A model generated the notes under the pieces. That model made no database searches. It was not told where the DNA came from and saw only the letters and a program-made list of their open reading frames with translations. A DNA stretch of 64,000 nucleotides from a virus, in IMG/VR virus record IMGVR_UViG_3300047546_001496, positions 31,379-95,378 of that record; one strand, written 5' to 3'. How positions within the stretch are numbered: position 1 is the first letter of the stretch; every line of letters starts with the position of its first letter. Made by a program: the position numbers and the translations under genes. Below are positions 30,787-60,301 of this stretch, piece after piece.

Positions 30787-30818
30787 CCTGTCCTGAGCAT
30801 GACAAGGCTAAACTGCTC
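30787..30818 (+). ncRNA. Mini-pseudoknot motif, copy 1
   Basis: TGTC-CTGAGCAT-GACA-aggctaaac-TGCTC. Confidence 0.7.
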
Positions 30819-30886
30819 ACTTGATTTTTAGCACTAAAAATGCTAAACTATAAATAACCCAAAAACCCAAACGAAAGGATAAACAA

Positions 30887-31309
30887 ATGGCTAGAAATGG
30901 CAAAGCGATAAATGTAAAAATCGCTACAACTAAAGTAGTCAAGGCACTAGAAAGTGCGTTGGCTAAGTTAGATAAAGACTTCGCTTCACAAGAGGCGAAC
31001 GAGGCAAAGCACGACAAAGCAGTAAAGGCATGGAATAAAGAGGTTGCCAAACTTGCTATGGGTGCTATCAACAAGGCAGAGGATTTATCTGCTCATACAA
31101 GATACAATGGCGAAATCCAAGTATCTTTCTCACTACCTAAAGGTTCTATTGAAATCCCTGCTGAACCTAAGAAAGACTACAACTCTATCCATGAGTGGCA
31201 GTATCGTGAGCAAAAAGAGGAAATTGAGAACGCAATTCGTATTCTCAAGATGACAGATGAGGAAGTAGTTTCTACTTCTACTTACAACGCTATCGCAAGA
31301 TACTTGTAA
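30887..31309 (+). CDS. Hypothetical protein
   Basis: Own promoter and GAAAGGA RBS. Confidence 0.7.
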   Translation: MARNGKAINVKIATTKVVKALESALAKLDKDFASQEANEAKHDKAVKAWNKEVAKLAMGAINKAEDLSAHTRYNGEIQVSFSLPKGSIEIPAEPKKDYNSIHEWQYREQKEEIENAIRILKMTDEEVVSTSTYNAIARYL

Positions 31310-31398
31310 TTAGATAGGCAGGGGAGGGTATTTGACTTCCCTGCCAAAATCTAGTAAAATAATAATAAGACCCAATAAACAGAAAGGCAAGAAAAAAA

Positions 31399-31566
31399 AT
31401 GACATTAGGCGGATACACTTACCAAATCGGTGATTTATTCACAACAAGCAAAACAGGAATTACAGGTCGTATTGAGAAGTTCGTTCCAATGCGTCACAAT
31501 GTAACAAAGGTAATGCTTCGCTTGGCAAATAATCAAACTCGATTTGCTATGGTAAAGACATACTAA
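31399..31566 (+). CDS. Small beta-barrel hypothetical protein
   Basis: Paralog of 30604..30771. Confidence 0.7.
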   Translation: MTLGGYTYQIGDLFTTSKTGITGRIEKFVPMRHNVTKVMLRLANNQTRFAMVKTY

Positions 31567-31635
31567 GTTTCTTTCCTGATAAGCCCCGCTAAAAAATGAA
31601 GTGGCGAAAGTCCTTGCGGGTATTCCTGGAAAGAT

Positions 31636-31662
31636 CATCCTGAGCATGATGTAAAACTGCTC
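31636..31662 (+). ncRNA. Mini-pseudoknot motif, copy 2
   Basis: CATC-CTGAGCAT-GATG-taaaac-TGCTC. Confidence 0.7.
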
Positions 31663-31791
31663 CACCTCCAAAAACCCCACGTGGGCCTGTGATCTTTATC
31701 ACACCGACACGCCATAAATTTTTAAGACTGGACTTGTATTTTCCCCTATTTTTTGCTAGACTTGTTACAAGACCCAAAGAAAGGAAACAAA

Positions 31792-32067
31792 ATGATAGCG
31801 ACAATGCTAGGACTACAAAATGCAACACAGGAAGCGGTTCATGACCCAATTATAATGAACATGGCTTCTGCTATTTATCATCACAAAGACGAAATGTCAT
31901 CAGAGGAATTTGCTAGGGCTTTATTTGAATACTCTGCTGCTCTTTCATCTATGACAACAACTCTCGTGACCCATGTATTATTGACACAAGAACAATTAGA
32001 TGTTATGCTAGATACTATTAGAGAATTTGATGAACTAGGAAAGGACATCTCAAATGGAAACGAATAA
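31792..32067 (+). CDS. Hypothetical protein
   Basis: GAAAGG RBS and promoter. Confidence 0.65.
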   Translation: MIATMLGLQNATQEAVHDPIIMNMASAIYHHKDEMSSEEFARALFEYSAALSSMTTTLVTHVLLTQEQLDVMLDTIREFDELGKDISNGNE

Positions 32068-32506
32068 TGAAACCGTGGCTCCAGTCCACTACAACCCAAA
32101 TCAATTGGTAACCTATAAAGTTATTGATTTAGATGCAACGGACCAAACCGTACAGTACCCAACTATCAAAGTTGTAGACCTTGAATGGGAACTTGAACAG
32201 GGCCGTCGTAAGTCGAAGAGGCTGAATGAATACGTAGAAAAAGTTGGCCATGTAGAAAATAGACTGGCTGATTATTTAGAAATGGACGCAGAAGACATTG
32301 TCTCTGAACTATGCAATATTTTTGGATTCAATCCAACCAAGGAAATTGAATTTGAAGCAACCGCAACAATTACTGGAAGGGTTAGTGTTCCACTAGCGGA
32401 CCTATCAACATTTGACATTGAAGATATCGATTTGACTGTTTATGCAGATTCGCATTCACATGATGTTGATGTTGATGTAGAAGTTGACAACATCTCAATG
32501 CTATAA
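32054..32506 (+). CDS. Acidic hypothetical protein
   Basis: AAGGA RBS. Confidence 0.65.
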   Translation: METNNETVAPVHYNPNQLVTYKVIDLDATDQTVQYPTIKVVDLEWELEQGRRKSKRLNEYVEKVGHVENRLADYLEMDAEDIVSELCNIFGFNPTKEIEFEATATITGRVSVPLADLSTFDIEDIDLTVYADSHSHDVDVDVEVDNISML

Positions 32507-32510
32507 AAAT

Positions 32511-32612
32511 TTGCGGGGTTCATGAAAGGCCCCGCAATGTATGCAGCATCCCTCTTTCATCCTTTCTTTCAGGGATCTGCAAGGGACCTGAGCATGTCCA
32601 TGTAAACTGCTC
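32511..32612 (+). ncRNA. Candidate sRNA: two hairpins (anti-SD loop) plus mini-pseudoknot copy 3 (32584-32612)
   Basis: Two strong stems; GGAC-CTGAGCAT-GTCC-atgtaaac-TGCTC. Confidence 0.6.
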
Positions 32613-32755
32613 CCTCCAAAAATCCACGTCCCGCAAAGGGATTTTGTCAAGTTTACGGACAGTCTGGACAATTCGGACATTTTGCTTAACAGGATTTGCT
32701 TTTGTCGCTGGGTTGTGCTAAGATAGATTCTAAATGACCACAGAAAGGAAAAAAA

Positions 32756-33775
32756 ATGGCTCATGAATTAGAAACACAAAATGGTGTTGCTTCTTTTGCT
32801 TCTTTCAGAGAACCTGCTTGGCATGGCTTAGGCACAGTTTTCACAGAAGAAAAAAATACTAGCGAAATGCTAGTTGCTGCTAATCTAAATAATTGGAATG
32901 TTAGATTGGCTGATGTTGAAATTCCAAATACACTTACCTCAGACAAAAATTACTTTTTTGTAGTAAGAGATAATCCTACCGATAAATCACAAACAGATGT
33001 TCTTGGTGTTGTCGGTGAGCGTTATCATGTTTTACAGAATGAAGATTTATTCTCATTCGGTGATACTCTCCTAGATGGTGGTGGTCGTTGGGAAACTGCT
33101 GGCTCTATTCGTGGAGGTCGTGTTGTATTCGGCTCTCTTGCTCTTGAGCGTGAAACAGTATTAGACCCTAATGGTGTTGCGGATAAGGTAAAGACTTATC
33201 TTCTTATCAATACATCTCACGATGGTTCTATTGCTATTCAAGCATCTATCACGCCCGTTCGTGTTGTATGCGCTAACACTCTAAACCTTGCTCTTGGTGG
33301 CGTAGGTCGTAAGAAAAAAGGCGTAAAGCAATCTTTCAAGATTCGCCACACACAAACCGCTAATGGTAAAGTCCAAATTGCTCGTGAGGCTCTTGGTCTT
33401 GCTAATGCTTACATGGACGAATTCGATAAAATGGCTCATGCTATGATTCAACACGAAATCACAGCACAGCAATTTAACGATATTGTTCTTGCTGCTTATC
33501 CAAAGCCTGAAAGCGATAAGAAAATCGCACTCACCAAATGGACAAATAAAGTTGATACTATCAACGATATTTACACAGGTGAATTTAATGGCATGATTGC
33601 TGGTTCTGCTTGGGGTGCGTTCAATGCGCTAACCGAAAGATTAGATTGGCATCGTTCTGCTCGTGGTGGAAATAATGAGGCAATGCTTGCTGCTGCTTCT
33701 GGTTTTGACGCTACAATTACAGCAGAAAAAAATCGTTTGCTAAAAGTTGTAAAAGATGTTTTAGCAATAGCGTAA
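32756..33775 (+). CDS. DUF932 / TIGR03299-type phage-plasmid protein
   Basis: REPAWHGLG, ETAGS..GG.V, NTSHDGS, TPVRVVCANTL, IRHT. Confidence 0.85.
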   Translation: MAHELETQNGVASFASFREPAWHGLGTVFTEEKNTSEMLVAANLNNWNVRLADVEIPNTLTSDKNYFFVVRDNPTDKSQTDVLGVVGERYHVLQNEDLFSFGDTLLDGGGRWETAGSIRGGRVVFGSLALERETVLDPNGVADKVKTYLLINTSHDGSIAIQASITPVRVVCANTLNLALGGVGRKKKGVKQSFKIRHTQTANGKVQIAREALGLANAYMDEFDKMAHAMIQHEITAQQFNDIVLAAYPKPESDKKIALTKWTNKVDTINDIYTGEFNGMIAGSAWGAFNALTERLDWHRSARGGNNEAMLAAASGFDATITAEKNRLLKVVKDVLAIA

Positions 33776-33786
33776 ATAAATTCGCA

Positions 33787-33813
33787 ACTCCTGAGCACGA
33801 GTATAAACTGCTC
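33787..33813 (+). ncRNA. Mini-pseudoknot motif, copy 4
   Basis: ACTC-CTGAGCAC-GAGT-ataaac-TGCTC. Confidence 0.7.
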
Positions 33814-34287
33814 AAATTTTTTTTGCAATCGCTGATCTAAAATAAAAAATTGCAAAAAACCCCACGTGAATTCGGACATTTCGGACATAACATTTTTAGA
33901 AAATTTAATTACGAAGCGCTTGCTTTTTTCCCTGAATTTTGGTATGATTAATTCATGACTCAAACCTACAAACCTTACACCGTAAACGAACTCGTTATGG
34001 CTTTATGGGAAGATAACATGTCCCATTTTGAATTTATGGAATCCATGAATGGCGGGGACTGTGATTGTGCCCTGCATACTACTATGAATACTATCTATCC
34101 TTACTTATGACAGACATCGTACTTTCATGGTCTGATTTAGCAGATCTAACACATGAGACTCAGGTAGAATTATTTAATTTCTGTACCTGCGAAGACCCTG
34201 ATTATGATAAGCCATATTCTGACTGCCCTTGACATTCCCCTGCATTTTTGCTAAAATATAATTACGACCTAACAGAAAGGACCCATA

Positions 34288-34974
34288 ATGCCAAATTGGT
34301 GTTATAACTATCTATCCATAGAGGGTAGTGCAAAAGATATCTCCACTATCAAGGCTCAACTCAATACTCCATTTGAGGTAATGCATGACAACTGGAATTC
34401 TGAAACAAGACAAATGGAAAAGAAAATGTATAAATACTCTAAACCAGTATTTGCATTCTGGAACATTGTCAAACCCACAAACCTAAAAGCCTATAATGGT
34501 CCACAACCTGAAACAGATTTATCTAAAGGTGTTACTTTTGAATCAGACCATTGGTATGACTGGAATGTTCGCAATTGGGGAACTAAGTGGGATGTTGCTG
34601 TATCTGATGAAGAGAAGTATTCTGAGACTGAGTTGACTGATGAGGGTAAGAAGTTTCTTTCCTATCGTTTCAACACTGCTTGGTCCCCTCCTACTGAGGC
34701 AATAACAAAACTATCTGAACAATATCCTGATTTAGTTATTACTCTATCCTTTGAGGAAGAGACTGGTTGGGGTGGAGAGATAGTTTTTGAAAATGGCGAG
34801 GGTGCAGAAACAGAATCCTATGGCTGGAAGTGTAAAGAGTGCGACCATACAGAGGAAGAAACACCATTTTGTGAAGATTGTGACTTTGACACTTGCCCAA
34901 GTTGTGGATATAATGAAGCAGATGAGGCATGCGAACAACACAGAGAGGGACATAATGCACACTTATTTGCTTGA
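34288..34974 (+). CDS. DUF1281/Api92-like ferredoxin-like-fold protein with C-terminal Cys cluster
   Basis: MPNWCYN...WYDWN..NWGTKWD...FNTAWSPP. Confidence 0.8.
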   Translation: MPNWCYNYLSIEGSAKDISTIKAQLNTPFEVMHDNWNSETRQMEKKMYKYSKPVFAFWNIVKPTNLKAYNGPQPETDLSKGVTFESDHWYDWNVRNWGTKWDVAVSDEEKYSETELTDEGKKFLSYRFNTAWSPPTEAITKLSEQYPDLVITLSFEEETGWGGEIVFENGEGAETESYGWKCKECDHTEEETPFCEDCDFDTCPSCGYNEADEACEQHREGHNAHLFA

Positions 34975-35164
34975 ATATATGAAGGCACATCTAATTAGTT
35001 TAGAACAAGACCAAGAAGAGATAGAAAAACAAATGGAAAATTTAGATATGAATTCTAAAGAGTTCCTAGAGTTAGATTTTGAATTTAACTGGTTGGGTGG
35101 GCAGGCTATTGCTACCCGCCACTTTATAAAAATAGCAGAGGAGTATAATGGAACTGCAGCCTAG
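34955..35164 (+). CDS. Hypothetical protein
   Basis: GAGGGA RBS. Confidence 0.55.
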   Translation: MHTYLLEYMKAHLISLEQDQEEIEKQMENLDMNSKEFLELDFEFNWLGGQAIATRHFIKIAEEYNGTAA

Positions 35165-35417
35165 TCTACAGAGACAGGTGGACCATGGTTCATCTGGTCT
35201 TGATATATTACATGGTGCCCTTAAAGTTCTCATGGTGGACGCAGAAGATGAACTACGTATGGCCCAAGAGACCGAAGAGGCCAATGACTATGACGACGCT
35301 ATGGAATCTATGGAGCGTAAATACTGGGAGGGACAGGTAGACGCTCTTGCACATTTATATGAACTCACATATGCATTATCATTCGCTATAGCAGAAAGGG
35401 AAAGCAGCAATGCCTAA
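35148..35417 (+). CDS. Hypothetical protein
   Basis: GAGGAG RBS. Confidence 0.6.
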   Translation: MELQPSLQRQVDHGSSGLDILHGALKVLMVDAEDELRMAQETEEANDYDDAMESMERKYWEGQVDALAHLYELTYALSFAIAERESSNA

Positions 35418-35684
35418 TTACAGCATAGAGGTTATTCATGAGCCTACGGGTACATTTATGAACTTTACTGTCGATTCAGATCTAGAAGAGGACCAGGTTT
35501 GGAACGAGGTTTTGTCCGATTTGTCCGTAGTTGCTTTTTCAAAGGATAACTGATACAATGGCAATAAACCCTACAGAAAGGAAATAATAATGGCTATGGA
35601 ATACATTGACGGAGAACTAGTGTTCTTTGAGGATGAAGAAATAGATTTAATTGATGAAGAGCAAGATGAGGACGAGGAGTAATC

Positions 35685-36047
35685 GTGGGAGATAGAATCG
35701 TCTACACAATCAAACAAGATAATAATTTATCAGTTAACCTGTACAGCCACTGGGGTGGCAGCGATAGGTTTGAGTCCCTGGCGAATGCATTACATGCAGC
35801 AATGCCAAGGTGGAATGACACATCCTATGCAACACGCATTATCGTATCTCAGTTGATTGGCAACCAATGGGATGAGGAGACAGGCTTTGGTCTATGGGCC
35901 AGCAATAGTGACGGGGCATATGGAGGAGACCATCCAGATATCACTATTGATTTAATTAATAAGACTGTAGAAGATGAGACTGGCATTCATGACTTTGAAA
36001 GTTTTATTACTTATCATAAAGGCTTTGTGACGACGGTCACATCATAA
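35685..36047 (+). CDS. Conserved phage hypothetical protein
   Basis: MGDR...LYSHWGG...RWND.SY. Confidence 0.7.
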   Translation: MGDRIVYTIKQDNNLSVNLYSHWGGSDRFESLANALHAAMPRWNDTSYATRIIVSQLIGNQWDEETGFGLWASNSDGAYGGDHPDITIDLINKTVEDETGIHDFESFITYHKGFVTTVTS

Positions 36048-36140
36048 AGAGGGTTGGGTCCCCTCTATACGGGGGCGTGGGTTATCTTGCCAACTTGCGC
36101 CCCCTTCTAATTTTTGGTACAATCTATAGGAAGGAGCATA

Positions 36141-36395
36141 ATGTCTAGATATAGTGTTAGAAGGCCTACACATAATAAAGAATCAAGGGCAGCCGAGCAG
36201 ATTGCTAAGTTGCTTACACAAGACATGGCTCTTGACTTAGAGCGTGTTGGATATTATTTAGTCAGAAATCTTCCTAGAATTGTTTATCATCGCCTTGAAG
36301 TCATGGCCTTGTCAGCACAGGAAGAATCTGCTATACTTATGGGTGAGTATGAAAAGGATAGAGGCAGGGGAATAAGTTATGGACTTCGCAGATAA
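36141..36395 (+). CDS. Hypothetical protein
   Basis: AAGGAG RBS. Confidence 0.6.
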   Translation: MSRYSVRRPTHNKESRAAEQIAKLLTQDMALDLERVGYYLVRNLPRIVYHRLEVMALSAQEESAILMGEYEKDRGRGISYGLRR

Positions 36396-42901: not shown

Positions 42902-42975
42902 GGAGCAGTAGCCAAGTTGGTCAAGGCCCCGAACTCATAATTCGGCTATCGTAGGTTCAAGTCCTACCTGCTCTA
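42902..42975 (+). tRNA. tRNA with CAT anticodon (elongator Met or Ile2)
   Basis: Cloverleaf; CCGAA-CTCATAA-TTCGG; lacks the initiator GGG/CCC stem. Confidence 0.9.
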
Positions 42976-42981
42976 CTGTAT

Positions 42982-43054
42982 ACCCTCGTAACTCAGTGGA
43001 TAGAGTAGCGGACTTCTAATCCGTTTGTCGTTGGTTCAAATCCAATCGAGGGTG
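42982..43054 (+). tRNA. tRNA-Arg(TCT)
   Basis: Cloverleaf; GCGGA-CTTCTAA-TCCGT. Confidence 0.92.
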
Positions 43055-43069
43055 CTACAATAGAATAAT

Positions 43070-43142
43070 TGATCTGTAGTTCAGTTGGTAGAACACTCGA
43101 CTGTTAATCGAGATGTCGCAGGATCGAGACCTGCCAGATCAG
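43070..43142 (+). tRNA. tRNA-Asn(GTT)
   Basis: Cloverleaf; CTCGA-CTGTTAA-TCGAG; atypical T loop ATCGAGA. Confidence 0.88.
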
Positions 43143-43169
43143 CAAAAACATGTAAGGTATAATTGAAAT

Positions 43170-44024
43170 ATGAAAATTTATTATTTTGGTGGACAGGCTT
43201 CAATTTATGCAACAAATATAGATCAACTTGAAGACGCTCATTGCGATGGTATTTTATTTACATATAGACAATTACAAGGTGATTTTTTTACTATCATTGC
43301 AAGAACCCTAAATAAAAATCAAAAAATAAAATATATGGTTGCAATTAGACCTCATGCCTTGTCTGCACAATATTTAACAATGATAAATCAATCTATGAAT
43401 AGCATACAAAAAGATAGATTACAAATAAATATTATTGCTGGACATATTAAACCTGATGAAATTAATTTTGGTGGAATTGTTGGTCCTATAACTGATAGTT
43501 CTTCGATTCCAGATAGAACAAATTATATGATAGATTATATTCAAGAACTTGATAATATGAAAAACAATGGCATAGATATACCAGATTGTTATGTTTCTTG
43601 CACAAATAAATATTCCTTGGAAGCAGCAGCCAAACTTGATTATAAAATAATTTTTTCATATAAAGATTATAAATTTGGATATTTTTTAGATAAAAGCATT
43701 GAGGGCCAAGAAAAACCTGGAGATACTTTTAATTTGTCTGATAAAAAAATTATGTTGGCTATTTCTCCAATTATAAGAGATACTCAAGAAGAAATAGATA
43801 AAGAATTTCCAAAGGATGTGGTAGTTCATGTTTATGGCGGAACATCCTATAAAGATAGGCCTAGATTTGCAAAAGATACAGCATATTTCACATATGATAA
43901 ATTTGTTTCTTTTATTCAAGACTTAAAATCAAAGGGTATTAATGAGATACTTATTAATGGGGTTCCAGAATCTGAAAGAAATAATTTAATTAAATACATA
44001 AAAAAATATAAAGAAAATGAATAA
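43170..44024 (+). CDS. Luciferase-like (LLM) flavin monooxygenase-fold protein
   Basis: IKYMVAIRPH.LS...RLQINIIAG. Confidence 0.7.
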   Translation: MKIYYFGGQASIYATNIDQLEDAHCDGILFTYRQLQGDFFTIIARTLNKNQKIKYMVAIRPHALSAQYLTMINQSMNSIQKDRLQINIIAGHIKPDEINFGGIVGPITDSSSIPDRTNYMIDYIQELDNMKNNGIDIPDCYVSCTNKYSLEAAAKLDYKIIFSYKDYKFGYFLDKSIEGQEKPGDTFNLSDKKIMLAISPIIRDTQEEIDKEFPKDVVVHVYGGTSYKDRPRFAKDTAYFTYDKFVSFIQDLKSKGINEILINGVPESERNNLIKYIKKYKENE

Positions 44025-44063
44025 CTTGCAATATTATTTGAAATAGTATATACTTTAATGGTT

Positions 44064-44137
44064 GGTCCGTTAGTTCAGTTGGTTAGAACGCTACCCTGTC
44101 ACGGTAGAGGTCGTGAGTTCAAGTCTCATACGGATCG
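44064..44137 (+). tRNA. tRNA-Asp(GTC)
   Basis: Cloverleaf; CTACC-CTGTCAC-GGTAG. Confidence 0.92.
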
Positions 44138-44221
44138 CTGAGAAGGTAGGTGCTCTATGTGTGCCAGGGAAAAGGGAAACACATGTAAAGCAAGTTGCAA
44201 CCCTACCTTCTCCTTATTTTT

Positions 44222-44293
44222 GGCACTATCGTCTATCGGCTAGGACATCGCCCTTTCACGGCGGAAAGACGGGTTCGATTCCCGTTAGTGCTA
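44222..44293 (+). tRNA. tRNA-Glu(TTC)
   Basis: Cloverleaf; TCGCC-CTTTCAC-GGCGG. Confidence 0.92.
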
Positions 44294-44321
44294 CAATTTA
44301 ACAATATGGTATGATACATAT

Positions 44322-45005
44322 ATGGAAAAAGTATACCTAGATGAAGATAAAAAGGTTTGGATAATTGAAAACTTCCTTACTGAAGAAGAGTTAAATTGGT
44401 TCAAAAGACAAACAGATGATCCAAATGGTTGGTATCCAACAATGAGATCTCCATATAAAAATATATTAAATAAATTTTTGAATATTGTTCCTAAATATGA
44501 TGAAACTGGTAATATTATATTTCCAGATGAAAGTTCTGAAGTATTGCAATTAGAAGTTTTTACTAAACCTGGCGGAATTTGGGAAAGACTTGAGTCTGTA
44601 TTGCCACCAGTATACGGTAGACACGCAACATTACAAAGTTTTAAGTATATGACCGATGAAGAAATTAAAGAAAATGCAAATTATTCAACTCTAAATGAGT
44701 ACGGAGTTGATGTTTCAAACATAGATTTTGCTATGTATTGGCATCAGGATCCAGATGAAGAACAAAACATAATTTGCTCCTTTAGCCTTTACCTCAATGA
44801 TGATTTTGATGGTGGAGAGTTAGAGTTTGCAGAAGTCCCCATTAAATTAAAGCCGAAGGCTGGAACATTGGCTGTAATTCCTGGCGGATACAAGTATAGA
44901 CATAGGGTAAATAAGGTATTAGGGCCTAACTCAAGGCATACTCTATATGGCAATTCGTTTATAGATGCTTCTAAGATCCCTCAGAGCACCAAAGATGACT
45001 GCTAA
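44322..45005 (+). CDS. 2OG-Fe(II) oxygenase
   Basis: WHQD...YLNDDFDGGELEF...HRV; paralog of 39452..40201. Confidence 0.85.
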   Translation: MEKVYLDEDKKVWIIENFLTEEELNWFKRQTDDPNGWYPTMRSPYKNILNKFLNIVPKYDETGNIIFPDESSEVLQLEVFTKPGGIWERLESVLPPVYGRHATLQSFKYMTDEEIKENANYSTLNEYGVDVSNIDFAMYWHQDPDEEQNIICSFSLYLNDDFDGGELEFAEVPIKLKPKAGTLAVIPGGYKYRHRVNKVLGPNSRHTLYGNSFIDASKIPQSTKDDC

Positions 45006-45043
45006 AATAGTGTTATAATAATCCCATAACCCACAGGAGGTAA

Positions 45044-45859
45044 TTGATGAAATCAATTTACGATATCGAACTGGAATCAGCCGAAGGCGTTCCACACTTT
45101 ATGCAACAGTTTAAGGGCAAAGCAATCATGCTTATCAACACAACAGTTGGTTGCGGAAATGCTGGTCAAATGGAATCTATTCAGTGGATACAGGATGACC
45201 TTGCGGGAGAAGATTTCTCTGTTGTTGCAATCCCAACAAATGATTTCTGTGGACCAAGCATTACAAAAGGTAAATGGTCTAAAGGAATTGAAAAAGGTTT
45301 AGACTCAAAGGCTTATGGAGAAGATGTTTATCAAGTTACTTTTCCTTTCTCAGAAATGATTACATCCAATCCTGCAGAAATTCCATTGGAAGAGCCATGG
45401 GCTGGTAAGGGTCCAGGACTTAATGGAAATGGTCAACCTTTTGGAGAAAGACATGAACTTTATTTAGAAGTTTCAAGACAAGTTGAAGCAATTCAAAAGA
45501 AAGTAAGAGAACTTGGAATTGTTCAAAAAACAGATTATGAATCAAGATATTTAAATGAACATAATGGTGGAATTACAATGAATTGTAATTTTGAAAAATA
45601 TCTTATTGATAAAGATGGATATGTTGTAAAGCATTATCCTTGCACAACACTCAATTATGATGTTGAAAGAACTTTGAAAGAGGATCTTTTGGCAAAGGGA
45701 ATTGTTGCAACTATGGGTCCAGACAGATCTCCTTCTATTTTTGAAGAAGAAAATCGTGTTATTCGTGATCATATTCAGCGCCTTATGAATGGAGAAAAAT
45801 CAATTATTAATCCTAATAATGTGCTAATAGAAGCATTCCCAGAATTACTTGCAGTTTAA
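45044..45859 (+). CDS. Glutathione peroxidase-like protein (extended)
   Basis: NTTVGCG, IPTNDF, NFEKYLIDKDG. Confidence 0.75.
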   Translation: MMKSIYDIELESAEGVPHFMQQFKGKAIMLINTTVGCGNAGQMESIQWIQDDLAGEDFSVVAIPTNDFCGPSITKGKWSKGIEKGLDSKAYGEDVYQVTFPFSEMITSNPAEIPLEEPWAGKGPGLNGNGQPFGERHELYLEVSRQVEAIQKKVRELGIVQKTDYESRYLNEHNGGITMNCNFEKYLIDKDGYVVKHYPCTTLNYDVERTLKEDLLAKGIVATMGPDRSPSIFEEENRVIRDHIQRLMNGEKSIINPNNVLIEAFPELLAV

Positions 45860-45920
45860 TAAAATATCAACTATTTTCTCCTATGGTATACTTAATATAT
45901 AACATAGGAGAAAATTTTTT

Positions 45921-46355
45921 ATGAACATATACAATTTATCATTTACTGATAATAACAAAAATGTTATACAGTTAAAAACTTTTGAGGGTAAAGACATCCT
46001 TATTGTAAATACAGCCAGCCATTGTGGAAGTACACCGCAGTATGCTGATTTACAAAAAATACAAAGCGAGTCACTAGTAGTAATTGGATTTCCATGTAAT
46101 CAATTTGGCAATCAAGAGCCAGGAACTAATGAAGAAATCAAAAACTTTTGTACAACTAACTACGGTATAACTTTCCCAATGTCAGAAAAAATTGAAGTAA
46201 ATGGTCCAAATACCCATCCTATTTATAAATATCTTAAAGATAAGGCTAAAGGTGGACGGGACATCGAATGGAATTTTGAAAAATTTTTAATATCAAAAGA
46301 TGGATCTATTACTCATTACCCAACACCTCATCCAGTATCTGATATTGTAAAGTAA
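45921..46355 (+). CDS. Glutathione peroxidase family protein
   Basis: NTASHCG, GFPCNQFGNQEPG, WNFEKFL. Confidence 0.92.
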   Translation: MNIYNLSFTDNNKNVIQLKTFEGKDILIVNTASHCGSTPQYADLQKIQSESLVVIGFPCNQFGNQEPGTNEEIKNFCTTNYGITFPMSEKIEVNGPNTHPIYKYLKDKAKGGRDIEWNFEKFLISKDGSITHYPTPHPVSDIVK

Positions 46356-46368
46356 ATATAGATGGATT

Positions 46369-46440
46369 GCCTCCTTAACTCAGTGGTAGAGTATCCGCCT
46401 TGTAAGCGGAAAGTCGTAGGTTCAAATCCTACAGGAGGCT
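46369..46440 (+). tRNA. tRNA-Thr(TGT)
   Basis: Cloverleaf; TCCGC-CTTGTAA-GCGGA. Confidence 0.92.
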
Positions 46441-47477: not shown

Positions 47478-48221
47478 TTACCAACCTTTTATTCTTTCAG
47501 TTTTGGATATTGTTCTACCAAAACCTTCAAATAATAACTTTTCAACTGGAATACAATTAGGAACCATTTTTCCATCTTGTTCTTTCATTCCTCTTTGTAC
47601 ATATCCTTCCCAGCATGGATCTGCTTTATTTACATCCCCGCAGCAATCGCCCTTCATTTCATTGGCTTGACAAACTGGACATAAATCACAGCAAACATTC
47701 ATATCTTTACATGTAGGACATCCGCAGCCATCATAAGTACAAGGATCATTTGATGCTTGACCAACTACAGAAATATCTTCTTTAATAACTTCATTTTTAT
47801 CCATACCAATATTTTCCTCTAACGATGGCATAACTAATACTTCAGATGCTTTATGTCCAACAAAATATTCTGTTTCTTGAAGTCCTCCATTTTCAACTTC
47901 AAATAACTGAATTAATACAGCAGGTTCTGTTGGTGTAGCCTCAATTGCATATTCTGATCCTGGCATTCCAAGCATTCCTTCATTCATTACATGAACTACA
48001 CGGCCAATATGAACTTCGCCTTCTTCGTATGGTGCTATGACCATATCCCCTTCTTTGACCATAGACTTGCCTATATTGCCCTCAGAGCGGTTTATAGCGT
48101 ATATCTGTGCTGCTGCCTCTCCTTTGGTCTTATGACAGCCCATAACCTCTCCTGTGCTTGTTTTTACAGCAGGATACCCAGAGCATCCGTGAGAACCTTT
48201 TTCACCTACAGAATATGGCAT
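47478..48221 (-). CDS. Hypothetical protein with Cys-rich segment
   Basis: GCH.TK.EA..Q; DPCWEGY.Q.GMK..DGKMVPNC.P. Confidence 0.65.
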   Translation of the reverse strand: MPYSVGEKGSHGCSGYPAVKTSTGEVMGCHKTKGEAAAQIYAINRSEGNIGKSMVKEGDMVIAPYEEGEVHIGRVVHVMNEGMLGMPGSEYAIEATPTEPAVLIQLFEVENGGLQETEYFVGHKASEVLVMPSLEENIGMDKNEVIKEDISVVGQASNDPCTYDGCGCPTCKDMNVCCDLCPVCQANEMKGDCCGDVNKADPCWEGYVQRGMKEQDGKMVPNCIPVEKLLFEGFGRTISKTERIKGW

Positions 48222-48244
48222 ATTGTAATTATAGCATGTAAAAT

Positions 48245-48279: not shown

Positions 48280-48699
48280 TTACTTGATTTTGATAGTTTT
48301 TGGTTTCTTTTCTTCGGGGATGTTTCTTTCCACAAAGACGCTAAGAATACCGTCTGCCATTTCAGCACGATCTACCTCCATATACTCTCCAAGAGCAAAG
48401 GTGCGTGTGAATTTGCGAGTTGCGATACCCTTATGGAGTACATTCTCTGTACCCTCTTCGGTTTTCTCACCCTTGACGATTAGACTTCCATTATCCACAG
48501 AAACCTCGACTTCGTCCTTGCTGAAACCAGCAATGGCCAAAGACAACTTGTAAGTGTCCTCATCGATCTTTACCACATCATATGGTGGGTAGGATTGACG
48601 AGTTGCCTCACGATGGATGTTATAGAAGCGGTCCAACTCTCTGTTGAAACCAATAAAAAAAGGATCCTTAAAAAGATCCAATGACCATGTACTTACCAT
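48280..48699 (-). CDS. hsp20: Small heat shock protein (Hsp20/IbpA family)
   Basis: YPPYD, LAIAGF, LHKGIATRKFTRTF.L, DGILSV. Confidence 0.95.
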   Translation of the reverse strand: MVSTWSLDLFKDPFFIGFNRELDRFYNIHREATRQSYPPYDVVKIDEDTYKLSLAIAGFSKDEVEVSVDNGSLIVKGEKTEEGTENVLHKGIATRKFTRTFALGEYMEVDRAEMADGILSVFVERNIPEEKKPKTIKIK

Positions 48700-54881: not shown

Positions 54882-55099
54882 TATTTTCTACCCCACTGTA
54901 TTTTATTCCATCCACGCTCATGAATATAATAAATAAATACTTTAACTACCGTCTCCCAAAAGGCGATGGCCCCAGAAAGAGTAGCATTTTGTGTTAAAAC
55001 ATAGGCTACGGCAAATGAAGATAGTGTTCCCCATATGCGATAACTTAATGCTTTAACAAATGATCTACTTCTTGTTACGGTCATCTTTTTCCCAGACAC
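54881..55099 (-). CDS. DUF2061 membrane protein
   Basis: RS.VKA.SYR...YY.HER.W. Confidence 0.8.
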   Translation of the reverse strand: MSGKKMTVTRSRSFVKALSYRIWGTLSSFAVAYVLTQNATLSGAIAFWETVVKVFIYYIHERGWNKIQWGRK

Positions 55100-55146
55100 C
55101 CCAAATTCGTTCTTCTACATCTGCAATCTTATTGTCCCATAATGGC

Positions 55147-55905
55147 TTAGATGCCCATTTCACGACGCTTTTGAGTCGCTGATATAGCCTCAATAGAATC
55201 TTCAAGTTTCACCTGCTCAATCTTATATCCAACATCTCTACCATAAACTATGTTTGTTATATTTGGCAATCTTAGTACAAGCGTGTCCTTAAAAGAATTA
55301 TCTTGTTTAATATATGTTGCAACTTCATCATATTTAAGTGGATCTTTTTCTGATGTTTTATAGGTATTTCGTACACCAACCAATACCTGTGAAGTTCTTT
55401 TATGTGCTTCTTCCTTTAAAGCCTGATGACCTTCATGCCAGGGCTGATATCTGCCAAGTTGCAGGGTAGTTGGAGCAGACCAATCAAACAAACCACAAGC
55501 CTGTATTACTGTGTCTACTTCTTGCTCTACAGTATACCCTTCAAGAATTCTGATATGAAAATTTATAGGATCTTTCCAAAGTTTATTAGTATCCTCAAAT
55601 CTGCCTTCTTTTATTCTGTCAACCCATACGATGATGTCTGCGAAACCAAATGCACTTCTAGTTTCATCATTAGGGCAAACAAAATCAACAATTACAGGAG
55701 CAACATTCTGTTTGGCAATTAACCTTGCCATTTCTCCCATACGCCTTGCTTGTTCGATTCTGTCGGCGGGAGTGAAAGAAAGATCTGAGTTAACTGTAGA
55801 TCTAACTTCATCTGCATTAAGATGAATAGCATTAATGCGTTCCTTAAGTGCTTTGGCCAGTTCAGTCTTTCCTGATCCTGGAAGACCTATAATCTGAATA
55901 ATCAT
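55147..55905 (-). CDS. cysC: Adenylylsulfate kinase fused to a HIGH-type nucleotidyltransferase domain
   Basis: GLPGSGKT, NAD.VR..DL.F...DR; C-terminal GRYQPWHEGH. Confidence 0.8.
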   Translation of the reverse strand: MIIQIIGLPGSGKTELAKALKERINAIHLNADEVRSTVNSDLSFTPADRIEQARRMGEMARLIAKQNVAPVIVDFVCPNDETRSAFGFADIIVWVDRIKEGRFEDTNKLWKDPINFHIRILEGYTVEQEVDTVIQACGLFDWSAPTTLQLGRYQPWHEGHQALKEEAHKRTSQVLVGVRNTYKTSEKDPLKYDEVATYIKQDNSFKDTLVLRLPNITNIVYGRDVGYKIEQVKLEDSIEAISATQKRREMGI

Positions 55906-56104
55906 TCAAAATCCCTCTGTTCCTCAAATATTTTATTTATATCTTCTTCCATTATATCAAATGGCCTATCATCATGATCTTTGCACACTGGCCTAATTGC
56001 ATACCCATCAGCAACAATAGTTATTGCAAATCCATCGCAATAATGACATTTAGATAACATTTGTTTATTTTTTTGTCTTAAAAAATCTAAGTATTGTTTA
56101 TTGT

Positions 56105-56395
56105 TCATTTGTCTTCCTCCAAGGTTAGATGTTGCCAAACATTGGCCCAATCCTGTGCTGTCTTGTGATCATTAAACTCTTTGGATGGATTACCAGCATC
56201 TAAATAAATACCGCCCCAAACGCCGTACTCTTTACTTGATACCCCTACAGCAAAACAAGTTTTTGATACTGGACACTTTAGACATAGTAAGTCTATTGCA
56301 GGCCTTAAAGAAATGTCTTCTTCATACTTATCAAAAAATAAATTTGTATCATAATCAAGGCACGATGCCTGATCTTTCCATTTAAGTTTGTGCAT
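56105..56395 (-). CDS. whiB: WhiB-family Fe-S transcription factor
   Basis: W...ASC...FF...C..CPV...C...YGVWGG. Confidence 0.92.
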   Translation of the reverse strand: MHKLKWKDQASCLDYDTNLFFDKYEEDISLRPAIDLLCLKCPVSKTCFAVGVSSKEYGVWGGIYLDAGNPSKEFNDHKTAQDWANVWQHLTLEEDK

Positions 56396-56642
56396 GTCCT
56401 AGCACGAACCTTTCTGGAATATCCCAGCCATTCCTACTTGGTTCGAATCTTTTAGACATATACCAATTACCCTTGAAGTATACGCCATGCTTGGAAGTCT
56501 TAGCCTTATCAGATCTATATCGATGAATAACTGTCCAGCCATCCCAATATAGTTCCTTGCTTTTTGCAACTACCGCTTCCATTTGCTCTAATGTTTGTAT
56601 AATCATATCTCTCCTAGTATTTAAATATTCCCACTTCAACAT
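56382..56642 (-). CDS. Hypothetical protein
   Basis: L.WDGW motif. Confidence 0.6.
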   Translation of the reverse strand: MLKWEYLNTRRDMIIQTLEQMEAVVAKSKELYWDGWTVIHRYRSDKAKTSKHGVYFKGNWYMSKRFEPSRNGWDIPERFVLGHAQT

Positions 56643-56964
56643 TATTTAATTGTGCCTGTGCTACTAATTTTGAATTATTTTCTTTTGGCTTAGAAAGATA
56701 AACAAAATAATTAATTTCTGAAAAATTTTCTGCAAGCCACGATGGTGCTACTTTAAACATTTTAATTTTTTTACCACGAGACTTCATGCCCTTTTCAGAA
56801 ACATTGGTAAACTCCATAACCATCTTATTTACATTTGCTGGTCCAGCCGAATAGATATAGAAGTACTCGTCATCTACTGGCATGCTTGACAGGGCTACGC
56901 CCATAGCACGGAGGAAAACCTGGTAGTCTTCAAAACTACTAGTTCCCTGTACCCCCACTATCAT
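56614..56964 (-). CDS. Hypothetical protein (SLOG-like start)
   Basis: IVGVQGT..F.DY. Confidence 0.55.
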   Translation of the reverse strand: MIVGVQGTSSFEDYQVFLRAMGVALSSMPVDDEYFYIYSAGPANVNKMVMEFTNVSEKGMKSRGKKIKMFKVAPSWLAENFSEINYFVYLSKPKENNSKLVAQAQLNNVEVGIFKY

Positions 56965-57361
56965 TTAAGTTCCCTTCTCGTAGACGATCCATTATGAATA
57001 TCATCTTATCTAATTGTACCTTACTCATGGTCATTGTGTCAACTACTCTTGTAGTTTCTTTATCCACTATTTCTCCAGACATATCGGCGGTATAAAAAAC
57101 ATTATCTTTAACCCAGTATGCCTGATCATCCATAATAATTACCTTAATCCTAGTCTTTTTCTCATGCTTTTGTGCCTGAGTTTCTTGCTTAGGCTTCTCA
57201 ATTCCTGGCTGTTTATCCAGGGCTGACCTAAGAAAAAGTTTATGACTTTGTGTCTTTCTGCTAGTTTCATTAAACTCATTAAAAATATTATATTTTGATT
57301 GAAGTTTTGAGACTATGTAGACGAGGAAAAATGAAAAAAGAAATCCAATATAGTACTTCAT
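56939..57361 (-). CDS. Membrane-anchored hypothetical protein
   Basis: N-terminal TM. Confidence 0.6.
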   Translation of the reverse strand: MKYYIGFLFSFFLVYIVSKLQSKYNIFNEFNETSRKTQSHKLFLRSALDKQPGIEKPKQETQAQKHEKKTRIKVIIMDDQAYWVKDNVFYTADMSGEIVDKETTRVVDTMTMSKVQLDKMIFIMDRLREGNLNDSGGTGN

Positions 57362-57373
57362 ACCACTATTATA

Positions 57374-57727
57374 CTACTGTCTTGAAAGATGTCTCTTAAC
57401 TTCTCTTAATGTATGTAAAATATCTTCATCAAGAGATTTAATTAGTTCTGGATCAAAAGCCTTTTTAGTCAATGTAACCACTGGATTTTCAGCCATTACA
57501 TTCATGCTAACCATACCTAGTTCCCACAACTTCATTATATGAGAGTCAAACATATTTGCTGCCTCTCTTGCTAGAACTGGACTAACATATTTTAACTTGT
57601 CAGTAAAATTGTATAGTAATTCTCCAGTATCTGGATCTACGCCTGCTGGCTCAATAGCACCACTCAATATTAAATCATCTAAATTCATTTTATTCTCCCA
57701 ATCTCCATAGCATGGCTTTTGGACCAC
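57374..57727 (-). CDS. Hypothetical protein
   Basis: GAIE.AG.D..TGE..Y..TDKL; similar to the adjacent upstream ORF. Confidence 0.6.
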   Translation of the reverse strand: MVQKPCYGDWENKMNLDDLILSGAIEPAGVDPDTGELLYNFTDKLKYVSPVLAREAANMFDSHIMKLWELGMVSMNVMAENPVVTLTKKAFDPELIKSLDEDILHTLREVKRHLSRQ

Positions 57728-57913
57728 GCTTGTCTAATCTAAACAAATGATCCTTAAATTGATCTTCTAACTCTGCATAAATATGTGGAGCAATTTCTTG
57801 TAGTTTATCTGTTATCTTATAATATGTCTTGCCAGTATTCAAATCAATATCAGCAATCTCTATAGCATTTTGTAACAAAAGATGTTCTACAAGTGCATCA
57901 TTTTTTGCATTCA

Positions 57914-58321
57914 CTATTTCCCAGACTTCTTTCTTTGTGCAGCAAGTGCAGCAAAATCCTTTACCTTGGTCTCTCCAAGATAACCCCAAGCATAACCATC
58001 TTCGATCATATGATCATTAACAGAAACAGTATCTCCATCAACATATAGCCATCCTAAAATACGACCATACTTTTCTGAAGAGTCTGGTTTTTCTGTTTTG
58101 ATTACTACAAGTTTAGCATCTTTTAACTTATATTTCAAGTACTCTTTTGCCTCAATACCTAAAGTTTTTTCAAACTTATCTGAAGTTCTTGACTCTGGGG
58201 TATCAATTCCAGCAAGTCTGACTCGCTGAGAAAATGAAACATTAAAGCCAAGATCAATATCGACATCTATCGTGTCTCCATCAACAACTCCAGTTACCTT
58301 TTTTACTCTATATTCATACAT
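57914..58321 (-). CDS. Thermonuclease (SNase-like)
   Basis: VVDGDT, RVRLAGIDTPE, KYGRIL. Confidence 0.92.
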   Translation of the reverse strand: MYEYRVKKVTGVVDGDTIDVDIDLGFNVSFSQRVRLAGIDTPESRTSDKFEKTLGIEAKEYLKYKLKDAKLVVIKTEKPDSSEKYGRILGWLYVDGDTVSVNDHMIEDGYAWGYLGETKVKDFAALAAQRKKSGK

Positions 58322-58339
58322 AGTTTTCTCCTTTATATA

Positions 58340-58900
58340 TTAAATTAATTCTTCGTTAGGCATTATATCAACCAATAGGTGTACTCTGTCGATGTCACTA
58401 TTATTGTCTACCCAATGAAACCTATGATTATTTATTTCCCAACATTCGCCCATTTGCATATTAACTCTTTCAGACCCCACCCCAAAAACCACATTTCCAG
58501 ATGTAATAATTGGTACATGGTTTCTTCTTGCTAACATTAAGTAGTCGCCAGCATCTTCATGTAATGCTACATCTTCTCCTGCTGGTAGTTTAATTAATAA
58601 AACATTTCCCCTAATACCATTATGAATTCTTTCTAAATCTTGCAAGATAGGTTCTAATAATTCAAGCAATTTTTCATCATTAGAAATCTTATTGGTTATA
58701 AACTTTTGCCCATGCTTCCACTGTATACTACTAGTGTACACATTGTAGGTATTGGTATGCTTATGTGGAGTGTTTGGCCTTTTCTGTCTACTTGTATCGA
58801 TCATCCACTCATCTGAAAAATTACTAATATAGTTATTAAGTTCTGTTACATCATATTGTGCATGTTTTTTAACATTAAAATCTTCTTCTGTTTTTCTCAT
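58340..58900 (-). CDS. Aspartyl/asparaginyl beta-hydroxylase-like oxygenase
   Basis: HED...R.H.PI.T...GE.WEINN...H.V.N....RVHL. Confidence 0.85.
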   Translation of the reverse strand: MRKTEEDFNVKKHAQYDVTELNNYISNFSDEWMIDTSRQKRPNTPHKHTNTYNVYTSSIQWKHGQKFITNKISNDEKLLELLEPILQDLERIHNGIRGNVLLIKLPAGEDVALHEDAGDYLMLARRNHVPIITSGNVVFGVGSERVNMQMGECWEINNHRFHWVDNNSDIDRVHLLVDIMPNEELI

Positions 58901-58902
58901 TT

Positions 58903-59484
58903 TTACTCCAATGTTTTTGCAAAATCAGTTGAATAGCCAAAGATTGAAAAATCAAGGGCATAAAATTTTCTAACAATATCTATAGCAACATCAGTATATT
59001 CTTCAACATACATCTCTTTAGTATAGTTACCAATATGATGGAAGCCTAGTTCCCAATTTAGATCTTGTTCTAGTTCTTTTATATTTTCAAACCTATAAAC
59101 TTTTGTTACCTGGATATTATTTTGTGCATCAGTAATATACCAGGCCATTGGTAGGTGGAGCAAAGGGCTAATTTCTGATATTCTTTTTTCTAAAATATTA
59201 TTTAAATATTCCATAAAAGATATATTAGTCTTGTTTGCTTTATTATATTGATGATAAGAACTATACGTTCTAGTGTATGGATTTCTTACAACAGCAAAAG
59301 AAAATACTTTATCATCTATGTTGTTTTCTTTTTGCATATAAAAATATGGATCATGATGTCTTGGATATCCTCTTTTCCAATTATCAAGATTGTTGTCTTT
59401 TAATATTTTTATAATAGATGATCCAGCAGTTTTGGGTATATGAATATGCAAAACACCACTGTACTCTTTACCCAAAATATTCAT
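58903..59484 (-). CDS. Sulfotransferase family 2 protein
   Basis: HIHIPKTAGSS, VRNPY.R..S, Y..DF..FGY. Confidence 0.85.
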   Translation of the reverse strand: MNILGKEYSGVLHIHIPKTAGSSIIKILKDNNLDNWKRGYPRHHDPYFYMQKENNIDDKVFSFAVVRNPYTRTYSSYHQYNKANKTNISFMEYLNNILEKRISEISPLLHLPMAWYITDAQNNIQVTKVYRFENIKELEQDLNWELGFHHIGNYTKEMYVEEYTDVAIDIVRKFYALDFSIFGYSTDFAKTLE

Positions 59485-59486
59485 GA

Positions 59487-59786
59487 TTAGTTTTCGCTAC
59501 CAATCGTTCTGTTTTCCTGAAGTCTCTCTCTTTCATCAATAACACTTTCCATATACTTCATCATGTTATCGTAGCCAATAGCATTGTCCAATGCCTTATC
59601 ATAATGGTGCCCACAGAACAATAAATCTGAACCATTTTTACCCAAGACCTTTACATAGGCCTGAGCGCTACATCTATCGCATCTATCCCTGGCATCAAGA
59701 AGCCATACCTTTTCTTCTTCCTTAGACTTCAACATACTAAACATATTATACCTTTCTATTGTCAGTTTTATAAAATCCAGAGCCAT
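59487..59786 (-). CDS. Actinobacterial-type small Zn-binding protein
   Basis: DRCDRC.AQAYV...LLFCGHH. Confidence 0.7.
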   Translation of the reverse strand: MALDFIKLTIERYNMFSMLKSKEEEKVWLLDARDRCDRCSAQAYVKVLGKNGSDLLFCGHHYDKALDNAIGYDNMMKYMESVIDERERLQENRTIGSEN

Positions 59787-59931
59787 TGAATGTGACTCCT
59801 ACATTAGAGTATACACGAACTAAGTCCTTATTGCAAGTATCACATTTATACCCTGGATCTTCTTCGTTCATGCTTCTAACTTTGGTGTATCGCATAGCAC
59901 AAGCCATGCAGTCATATTCGTATGCTGGCAT
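59746..59931 (-). CDS. FmdB-family Zn-ribbon protein
   Basis: MP.YEY.C..C...C..C...F.GSGFY.TD. Confidence 0.9.
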   Translation of the reverse strand: MPAYEYDCMACAMRYTKVRSMNEEDPGYKCDTCNKDLVRVYSNVGVTFNGSGFYKTDNRKV

Positions 59932-60043
59932 AGCCTTTACTTCTTTTTCTTAGCCTTTACTTGCCAGACTGGTAGGTTTAGTTCATCTCCAGACCACTCA
60001 TAGCCAAGTATCTTAACAACAAACTTGATTATTTTAATTCTCA

Positions 60044-60244
60044 TTACTTTACTCCTTTGCCAAATTTGGCCCAAACTCTTTCATGGATAAAATATCCTAG
60101 TGCTTCCCAACCAATATAAAGAAGTGCTCCAAGGCTTGCATATTCCCATTCGCCAGTAAATAAATAAATTACTCCAGCAACTCCAACAAGGTGAAATGTT
60201 TCCCAACTTGCGGTTTTTAGCAATGTTCTTTTAGTAGATTCCAT
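60044..60244 (-). CDS. DUF2061 membrane protein
   Basis: RT.LKT.SW...YF.HER.W. Confidence 0.75.
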   Translation of the reverse strand: MESTKRTLLKTASWETFHLVGVAGVIYLFTGEWEYASLGALLYIGWEALGYFIHERVWAKFGKGVK

Positions 60245-60274
60245 AGTTCCTCCTATGTATATTATATCATTATT

Positions 60275-60301
60275 GGGCAGTTTTTAATCATGCCCAGGAT
60301 T
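60275..60301 (-). ncRNA. Mini-pseudoknot motif, copy 6 (compensatory variant)
   Basis: AATC-CTGGGCAT-GATT-aaaaac-TGCCC. Confidence 0.7.

Follow-up and report, generated by a model that had tools for sequence, protein, structure and literature searches.

A small ribonucleic acid (RNA) pseudoknot, hereafter the knot, occurs in six copies at the 3′ ends of genes in the phage genome IMGVR_UViG_3300047546_001496, an IMG/VR record of 95,378 bases (about 95 kb). Record bases 31379-95378, 64,000 nucleotides (nt) in all, constitute the window analysed here, and the positions below are those of the window. The six repeats are genuine copies, the set is complete for the genome, and the RNA family to which they belong is genuine, widespread and uncatalogued. 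The element is, on the covariation of both of its stems, a compact H-type RNA pseudoknot comprising a first stem (P1) of 4-5 base pairs (bp), a first loop (L1) reading CU, a second stem (P2) of 5-6 bp, a one-base junction and an A-rich last loop (L3) ending in AAAC. Knots lie mostly in the sense orientation shortly after stop codons, and they may well be end caps for the 3′ ends of the upstream messages, marking and shielding them, a reading which is favoured here although it falls somewhat short of being probable.

The six copies and their fold

All six copies have the same layout, in which a 4-bp P1 closed by a C-G pair is followed by CU, GRGCA, one base (U or C), the second strand of P1 (P1′), the spacer N2-5 AAAC and finally UGCYC. 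A strict pattern run over the whole 95-kb record gave four copies on the + strand and two on the - strand, all inside the window, and the same record read in reverse as a control gave no match. In addition, a covariance model made from 148 copies scored the six at 27.5-45.9 bits (E 6e-6 to 2e-11), and the next-best match in the genome reached 11.8 bits (E 0.26). The initial annotation of this DNA, which had pointed out the six sites and their consensus, is therefore correct in all but one detail, namely that copy 1 begins at 30789 and not at 30787. Its further statements that the six P1 stems (TGTC, CATC, GGAC, ACTC, CCAC and AATC) differ and yet pair perfectly with their partners, that copy 6 has changed both strands of P2 and that the copies lie 7-80 nt after a stop codon also hold, as follows.

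Copy 1 (30789-30818, + strand, 29.5 bits) is composed of P1 TGTC (30789-92), CU, GAGCA (30795-99), U, GACA (30801-04), the L3 sequence AGGCUAAAC and UGCUC (30814-18, with an additional A at 30819), and its P1 starts 17 nt after the TAA of an open reading frame (ORF) at 30496-30771. Copy 2 (31636-31662, +, 45.9 bits) has P1 CATC/GATG, P2 GAGCA/UGCUC and L3 UAAAAC and lies 69 nt after an ORF of 55 amino acids (aa) at 31399-31566, and copy 3 (32584-32612, +, 27.5 bits) has P1 GGAC/GUCC, P2 GAGCA/UGCUC and L3 AUGUAAAC and lies 77 nt after the ORF 32054-32506. These two are the only copies far from stops, and a GC-rich hairpin precedes each of them in the gap (31584-31619, CCCGC...GCGGG, and 32513-32535, GCGGGG...CCCCGC, respectively). 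Copy 4 (33787-33813, +, 41.9 bits; P1 ACUC/GAGU, P2 GAGCA/UGCUC) is found 11 nt after the TAA of a DUF932 gene (32756-33775) and is followed by AAA and eight T, the only clear T run downstream of any of the six. On the other strand, copy 5 (48271-48245, -, 45.9 bits; P1 CCAC/GUGG, P2 GAGCA/UGCUC) begins 8 nt after the TAA of an hsp20 gene (48280-48699, -), and copy 6 (60301-60275, -, 42.0 bits; P1 AAUC/GAUU) begins 7 nt after the TAA of a 276-aa ORF (60309-61139, -) and has P2 GGGCA/UGCCC, a compensatory exchange of A-U for G-C. The base after UGCYC is A in four of the six copies and could give P2 a sixth pair, U-A.

The pairing of P2 was assessed on a set chosen without any requirement that P2 be paired (P1 of at least 4 bp, CCU, G and AAAC, each half of P2 at most two changes from the consensus). 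The consensus itself was present in 175 of the 209 copies, and all five pairs were kept in 30 of the 34 that depart from it, 16 of them by single changes giving G-U and 14 by changes on both strands (AAGCA/UGCUU, GGGCA/UGCCC, GGGUA/UACCC, GAGUA/UACUC, GGACA/UGUCC and GGGCG/CGCCC); a pair was broken in only four. Furthermore, a gap-free alignment of 148 phage and bacterial copies contains double-sided changes in five of five P2 pairs and three of four P1 pairs, the fourth, the closing C-G, being invariant. None of 500 shuffles reached the observed covariation, and the signal was lost when the partner columns were slid by 1-3 positions. Both sets thus support the H-type fold with covariation in both stems that had been proposed at the outset. 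The loop CUGAGCAH is present in at least 90% of the 148 copies, and in 67% of copies the base that follows UGCUC could pair with the U of L1, a pair without covariation. Each helix alone is weak (P1 0 to -5 and P2 -4 to -7.5 kcal/mol), so the stability of the knot must come from stacking and from contacts between loops and grooves.

Because the arms are interleaved and P1 covaries, only a single-stranded fold can explain the element, and a protein-binding palindrome in the DNA is rejected. A sigma-70 promoter inside the motif is rejected as well, since a gap of only about 7 nt separates the conserved blocks and its length differs by up to 9 nt, which is unfit for a site in double-stranded DNA.

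Position behind stop codons and distribution

The position of the knot relative to genes was analysed in 283 structured copies pooled from the listed phage and bacterial loci. The upstream neighbour is an ORF on the same strand in 252 of them (89%), so that the sense orientation after stop codons first described in this phage is a property of the pooled copies too. Convergent gaps, where there is no co-directional gene to serve, hold 63 copies at a median of 17 nt after the stop, divergent gaps hold only 19, and in long co-directional gaps the knot stays close to the stop of the upstream gene. A tRNA starts 4-13 nt after the knot in 18 copies, and only one knot has the end of a tRNA within 100 nt upstream. 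Since tRNAs stand after knots but almost never before them, the knot follows translated genes, and a cut by RNase P would leave it at a 3′ end. Moreover, a Shine-Dalgarno site with a start codon is present in the 45 nt downstream of 41 of 151 phage copies. With tRNAs and start sites only a few bases away there is no room for a promoter, so RNA polymerase must read through these knots.

The distance from the stop has a sharp lower edge. Counted as the bases that separate the stop codon from the closing C of P1, the spacing in 193 copies behind ORFs of at least 100 aa is never 0-6 nt; 2 copies have 7 nt, 14 have 8, 11 have 9, 12 have 10, 9 have 11 and 9 have 12, after which the numbers tail off; about half of the copies are more than 20 nt from the stop. 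The upstream stop codon is mostly TAA, and in two copies the UGA inside the motif (the U of L1 with the GA of P2) is itself the stop. The ribosomal helicase reportedly lies at about +11 from the P-site codon, as Takyar et al. are said to have found in 2005. With the stop in the A site (+4 to +6), a spacing of 8 nt would put the 4-bp P1 at +12 to +15, where mRNA enters the terminating ribosome. A P1 that starts at about +11 or +12 would be just outside the helicase, and the knot would therefore stay folded during termination. On this geometry, the knot appears to be packed as near to the terminating ribosome as it can be without being melted.

The sequence after the knot is also biased. An A stands at position +1 in 70-74% of phage copies and in 53% of the bacterial ones; C or U comes next at +2 and +3, and U or A at +4 to +9. 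Hardly any G is present in +1 to +8 (1-10% in phage copies), beyond which the base frequencies are those of the background, and T is enriched over +3 to +9, where it makes up 40-47%. Six or more T within +1 to +10 are found in about 16% of copies, in keeping with the early remark that the knots in this phage mostly lack a U-tract. A hairpin with a T run follows within 70 nt in 19 of 279 copies (7%) versus 9% of the other ORF ends in the same loci (within 100 nt), which means that the knot is not an adjunct of ordinary terminators. A fold of -5 kcal/mol or lower is present in the next 30 nt in 21% of copies versus 11% of shuffles.

Judged by sequence, the knot family is widespread, occurring in many unrelated phages and in some bacteria. 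A scan of IMG/VR for the two conserved blocks, which carried the descriptor across phages, gave at least 145 copies in at least 119 contigs; among the matches listed, the gap length was 7 in 102 of 145, and a paired P1 of at least 3 bp and of ever-changing sequence was present in 135 of 145. A scan of one genome per prokaryotic species gave at least 119 contigs, for which about 17 chance matches to the pattern were estimated, and P1 was paired in 110 of the 119 contigs among the matches listed. BLAST, queried with a copy close to the consensus, gave matches between the genes of cultured phages, five of which were inspected. The knot follows a TAA after 6 nt in Mycobacterium phage Labelle (Patiencevirus); Arthrobacter phage Molivia has the SSB stop codon, 6 nt, the knot, 4 nt and tRNA-Gly in this order; the knot of Nostoc phage NMeng1 stands 3 nt ahead of a tRNA; Synechococcus phage S-EIVl has at least four copies, one with L1 CC and P2 AAGCA/UGCUU; and in Phietavirus phages of Staphylococcus aureus a small ORF is followed after 17 nt by a diverged copy (CCUUAGCA ... 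UGCUU), with the scaffold and major head genes downstream. Matches were obtained in 85 records of S. aureus phages. The copy of Staphylococcus phage StauST398-3 (L248:1500-1530), which is inside the late operon, has L1 CU and a P2 reduced to AGCA/UGCU. A BLAST query made of a knot and a tRNA matched in its tRNA part only, and the Patience paper reports no transcript mapping.

Among bacteria, contigs of Saccharibacteria (L132, at 4879-4906 and 5459-5486, L196 and L173) have two knots about 580 nt apart that flank small DUF7249 and DUF3768 genes beside an AAA_13 ATPase gene, and the second of these knots has P2 GGGCG/CGCCC, altering even the otherwise invariant A-U pair. This two-knot locus is probably a mobile element of candidate-phyla bacteria. 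In a Polynucleobacter contig (L152), CTGATGAGTCC, which resembles the core of a hammerhead ribozyme, stands 30 nt after each of two knots.

The phage genome of the present record encodes a portal, a protease, a capsid protein, a 3030-aa protein, tail fibres, a ribonucleotide reductase, many 2-oxoglutarate (2OG) oxygenases, Hsp20, a carbamoyltransferase and a halogenase. The portal shares 46-49% identity with the portals of large Streptomyces siphoviruses, which makes an actinobacterial host plausible; no knot is present in Streptomyces phage Comrade, which its portal (47% identity) makes the nearest relative in culture. All six knots are outside the structural module, and the four on the + strand end small-gene blocks of the early region. 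Behind these four stand A5-CCCACGTG, TGTGAT-N4-ATCACA and repeats of GGACA, all with the look of operators or promoters. Downstream of knots 2-4 (31669-31710, 32616-32690 and 33855-33890), in particular, A5-(C/T)CC(C)ACGTG, the palindrome TGTGATCTTTATCACA and tandem GGACA/TTCGGACA resemble operators or promoters that would belong to the next early unit, and a related phage contig (L071) has the same palindrome TGTGATCTTTATCACA after its own knot. The two knots on the - strand, after hsp20 and after the 276-aa ORF, are each directly followed by an extended -10-like TGnTATAAT. The first of these sequences, TGCTATAAT (48225-48233, -), is ahead of the ORF 47478-48221, the mRNA of which would be leaderless or nearly so if TGCTATAAT served as the -10 element; the second, TGATATAAT (60252-60260, -), is followed by a Shine-Dalgarno site ahead of a DUF2061 gene (60044-60244). 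The initial claim that the knot always precedes the next promoter is thus true of this phage, in which promoter- or operator-like sequence follows, and not a rule across the family. Six tRNA genes are interleaved with ORFs at 42902-46440, and none of them adjoins a knot, unlike in many other carrier phages.

A possible cap for messages and its rivals

If the knot is an end cap, it would be transcribed as the start of the 3′ untranslated region (UTR) of the upstream gene. The transcript would then be cut downstream of it, either by RNase P at an adjoining tRNA or by an endonuclease in the G-poor, A/U-rich tail of 8 nt, or the polymerase would stop nearby; 3′-to-5′ exonucleases would trim back the end and stall at the knot, and the upstream cistron would outlive the rest of the transcript. 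The knot would be placed as near to the stop codon as the terminating ribosome allows without melting it. The place in which it is found, in sense immediately behind coding regions and also behind genes that end a unit, is that of an mRNA 3′-end stabiliser. Three functions had been suggested at first, namely a 3′ exonuclease block, a non-canonical terminator and a small aptamer, and the first fits best, in that the knot follows ORFs and not tRNAs, occupies convergent gaps and often stands 4-13 nt before tRNA 5′ ends, at which RNase P has to cut; the block itself is a prediction.

Several points weigh against a cap. Each helix alone is weak, as described above, and RNase R is able to degrade structured RNA as long as a tail remains. 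In addition, a passive block does not obviously need P2, CU, the closing C-G and AAAC to be conserved across phyla, and such conservation hints at a specific partner or at a demanding tertiary fold. Finally, the G-poor tail of 8 nt has the length of the RNA-DNA hybrid at a terminator, and a cap does not predict such a tail.

The last point leads to the rival that survives best, although it is rather unlikely, namely a weak or conditional terminator or pause signal, in which P2 would form inside the exit channel like a terminator hairpin while the next 8 nt, poor in G and rich in A/U, made a weak hybrid, so that some polymerases would stop and the others continue. All six knots here end gene blocks, with promoter- or operator-like sequence next and no canonical terminator, and the 63 copies in convergent gaps end units that have few ordinary terminators. 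Moreover, the G-poor positions +1 to +8 are as long as a U-tract region, T is enriched at +3 to +9, and some copies do have six or more T. However, the 18 tRNAs and the 41 translation start sites just downstream mean that the knot is usually read through, and the terminator of the initial annotation is hard to reconcile with such neighbours and with the lack of room for a promoter. The +1 A and the frequent C at +2 and +3 are also unlike a U-tract, and conservation of sequence across phyla is unexpected for a terminator.

A broader proposal, an unlikely one, is that the knot is no passive cap but a universal end-of-cistron mark, placed right where mRNA enters the ribosome at termination and trailed by a G-poor tail of hybrid length, that is actively read by the translation or transcription machinery and couples the release of ribosomes to the fate of the RNA, which may be cut, paused on or read further. 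Its cellular prototype would be a micro-ORF of 20 aa, which ends on the knot-internal UGA in 18 bacterial contigs, some of them complete chromosomes (L135:109-168:+, L169:1996-2055:+, L184:2745-2804:-, L192:1648-1707:+ and 14 more). The consensus of the micro-ORF is MKRFMVPRVAHCKEGCxxxS with invariant H11, C12, G15, C16 and S20; it has a strong Shine-Dalgarno site, a terminator hairpin often comes after it, and NCBIfam has no family model for it. The hosts include Aminicenantes, Thermodesulfobacteriota, Anaerolineae, Actinomycetes, Eubacteriales, Spirochaetota and others, several of them anaerobic phyla, and the neighbouring genes vary from genome to genome. A ribosome must melt the knot to terminate on the micro-ORF, which keeps a function linked to the ribosome in play.

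Such a function, in its narrower form, is a signal read by the ribosome alone, which is given a still smaller chance. With the stop in the A site, the knot at the mRNA entrance would modulate termination or recycling, or block sliding and re-initiation, and thus insulate cistrons. The sharp edge at 7-8 nt, at which the mode of the spacing also lies, is consistent with this and is the geometry of frameshift and readthrough stimulators, and knots stand behind translated ORFs, not behind tRNAs; the micro-ORF points in the same direction. Small pseudoknots of the coremin type also stall scanning ribosomes in eukaryotic extracts (PMC10520033). On the other hand, about half of the copies, copies 2 and 3 with their 69 and 77 nt among them, are more than 20 nt from the stop, no extended readthrough or shifted ORF was seen, and the spacing edge is equally explained by a cap that must stay unmelted. 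Selenocysteine insertion or readthrough at the internal UGA is rejected, the frames beyond being short and not conserved by inspection.

Two further rivals are highly improbable. The knot might mimic the acceptor arm of a tRNA, like the tRNA-like structures of plant viruses, and thereby attract RNase P, RNase Z or the CCA-adding enzyme and punctuate polycistronic RNA. P1 stacked on P2 would make a helix of about 10-11 bp, the +1 A resembles a discriminator base, and ACC follows the knot in 20 of 118 phage copies (17%) versus about 1% expected, with ACCA in 12. Against this, the six copies here all lack the ACC, few bacterial copies have it, and related loci adjoining a tRNA account for about half of the ACCA cases; acceptor plus T arm would make 12 bp, more than the helix has, there is no mimic of the T loop, and the tRNA-like families of Rfam gave no match. 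By the same counts, the 3′ (A)CCA of tRNA-like structures of the turnip yellow mosaic virus (TYMV) type is not a feature of the knot.

The other, equally improbable, is that the knot is bound by a small ligand or by a universal protein, of which a Nus factor, S1 and PNPase would be examples. For an element of 27 nt, CU, GAGCA/UGCUC, AAAC and the closing C-G are conserved to an unusual degree across phyla, and UGCUC is the start of the rrn boxA core. However, compensatory change is tolerated at every position of P2, which argues against base-specific reading of this stem, and the one-base junction leaves no evident pocket. The genes around the copies also have no common function, be it in this phage (ORFs without a family, DUF932, Api92-like, Hsp20 and DUF2061) or in bacteria (HD, TldD, DUF72, SerRS, peptidase C26, Fur and others). 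A riboswitch or aptamer serving one pathway is rejected on this ground, and the small aptamer of the initial annotation is disfavoured because of the flanking genes together with the one-base junction.

Few RNA folds of less than 30 nt keep both sequence and structure across phages of Actinobacteria, Cyanobacteria, Firmicutes, Proteobacteria, Bacteroidota and candidate-phyla bacteria. If the knot marks gene ends, it would be a general punctuation signal of phage genomes that has so far gone unannotated, and transcription units of uncultured phages could be better annotated with its help. It is also possibly a portable part of 27 nt for tuning the stability of mRNA or for insulating cistrons, and viruses infecting bacteria would, if a cap is the true function, use pseudoknot roadblocks as RNA viruses of eukaryotes do. 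Since cultured carriers exist among phages of Mycobacterium smegmatis, Arthrobacter, S. aureus and the cyanobacteria, the question is directly testable, and the late-operon copy of S. aureus phages provides a tractable system for the segmental stability of mRNA.

Comparison with known RNAs

Rfam 15, searched with the whole window at gathering score, found six tRNAs only, and a search of 30700-33900 with E up to 10 gave three spurious snoRNA or miRNA matches, none of them on a knot, so that the fold which was not recognised at first has no Rfam 15 match on any of its copies. Full-text literature searches, which covered its sequence as well as phage pseudoknots connected with exonucleases or with the ends of mRNA, turned up no account of it. 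Several known elements do not fit the knot. It is not built like an intrinsic terminator, which has a nested GC-rich hairpin directly followed by a U-tract, whereas the knot is interleaved, continues with A at +1 and C or U at +2/+3 and has a T-rich tail in only the small fraction of copies given above; a Rho loading site does not fit, as the depletion of G ends after about 8 nt. Hammerhead and other small ribozymes have no Rfam match here, and CUGAGCA stands in a context that misfits the CUGANGA-stem II-GAAA layout. The preQ1-I riboswitch is likewise a minimal H-type pseudoknot with an A-rich tail, but the knot has no Rfam match to it, no 5′-UTR position, no queuosine genes and none of the nucleotides of the ligand pocket.

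The coremin motif, or exoribonuclease-resistant RNA of class xrRNA-C, and its Watson-Crick variant (PMC6546385, PMC10520033, PMC10321173) are similar to the knot in having a 4-bp hairpin, the loop of which contacts a downstream spacer containing AAAC, and in being located in 3′ UTRs and intergenic regions of viruses. They are physical roadblocks to a 5′-to-3′ enzyme, while the position rules of the knot point instead to protection of the upstream RNA. In addition, coremin needs the hp1 loop YGAD or YGNNAD and an obligatory second hairpin (PMC10520033); the knot has the loop CUGAGCAH and a G-poor tail of 8 nt, with a stable fold next in only 21% of copies, and is not a member of this class.

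Pseudoknots of the luteovirus type, namely the -1 frameshift stimulators of beet western yellows virus (BWYV), pea enation mosaic virus 1 (PEMV-1) and sugarcane yellow leaf virus (ScYLV), are also about 27 nt long, have a short L1, a junction of 0-1 nt and an A-rich last loop with an AAAC-like end, and stand, like the knot, about 5-8 nt from the A-site codon. In the knot, however, this codon is a stop, there is no slippery heptamer and no overlapping ORF, and P2 has 5-6 bp versus 3. A function in -1 frameshifting is rejected because of the stop codon in place of the heptamer and the 63 copies in convergent gaps.

The 3′ ends of MALAT1 and MEN-beta, in which a triple-helical element is combined with a tRNA-like RNA, resemble the tRNA-adjacent knots in that a protective structure is directly upstream of an RNase P cut. 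Their fold and their domain of life are different, and the knot does not capture an A-rich tract and, in most copies, has no adjoining tRNA.

Repetitive extragenic palindromic (REP) elements and other stem-loops that stabilise the 3′ ends of mRNA are, like the knot, short, repeated, sense-oriented and just behind stop codons, and they are thought to stop 3′-to-5′ exonucleases. Liang, Rudd and Deutscher are said to have found in 2015 that the distance of a REP from the stop codon matters for the terminating ribosome. REP elements, however, are plain imperfect palindromes that are confined to particular species, whereas the knot is interleaved and keeps one sequence core across many phyla.

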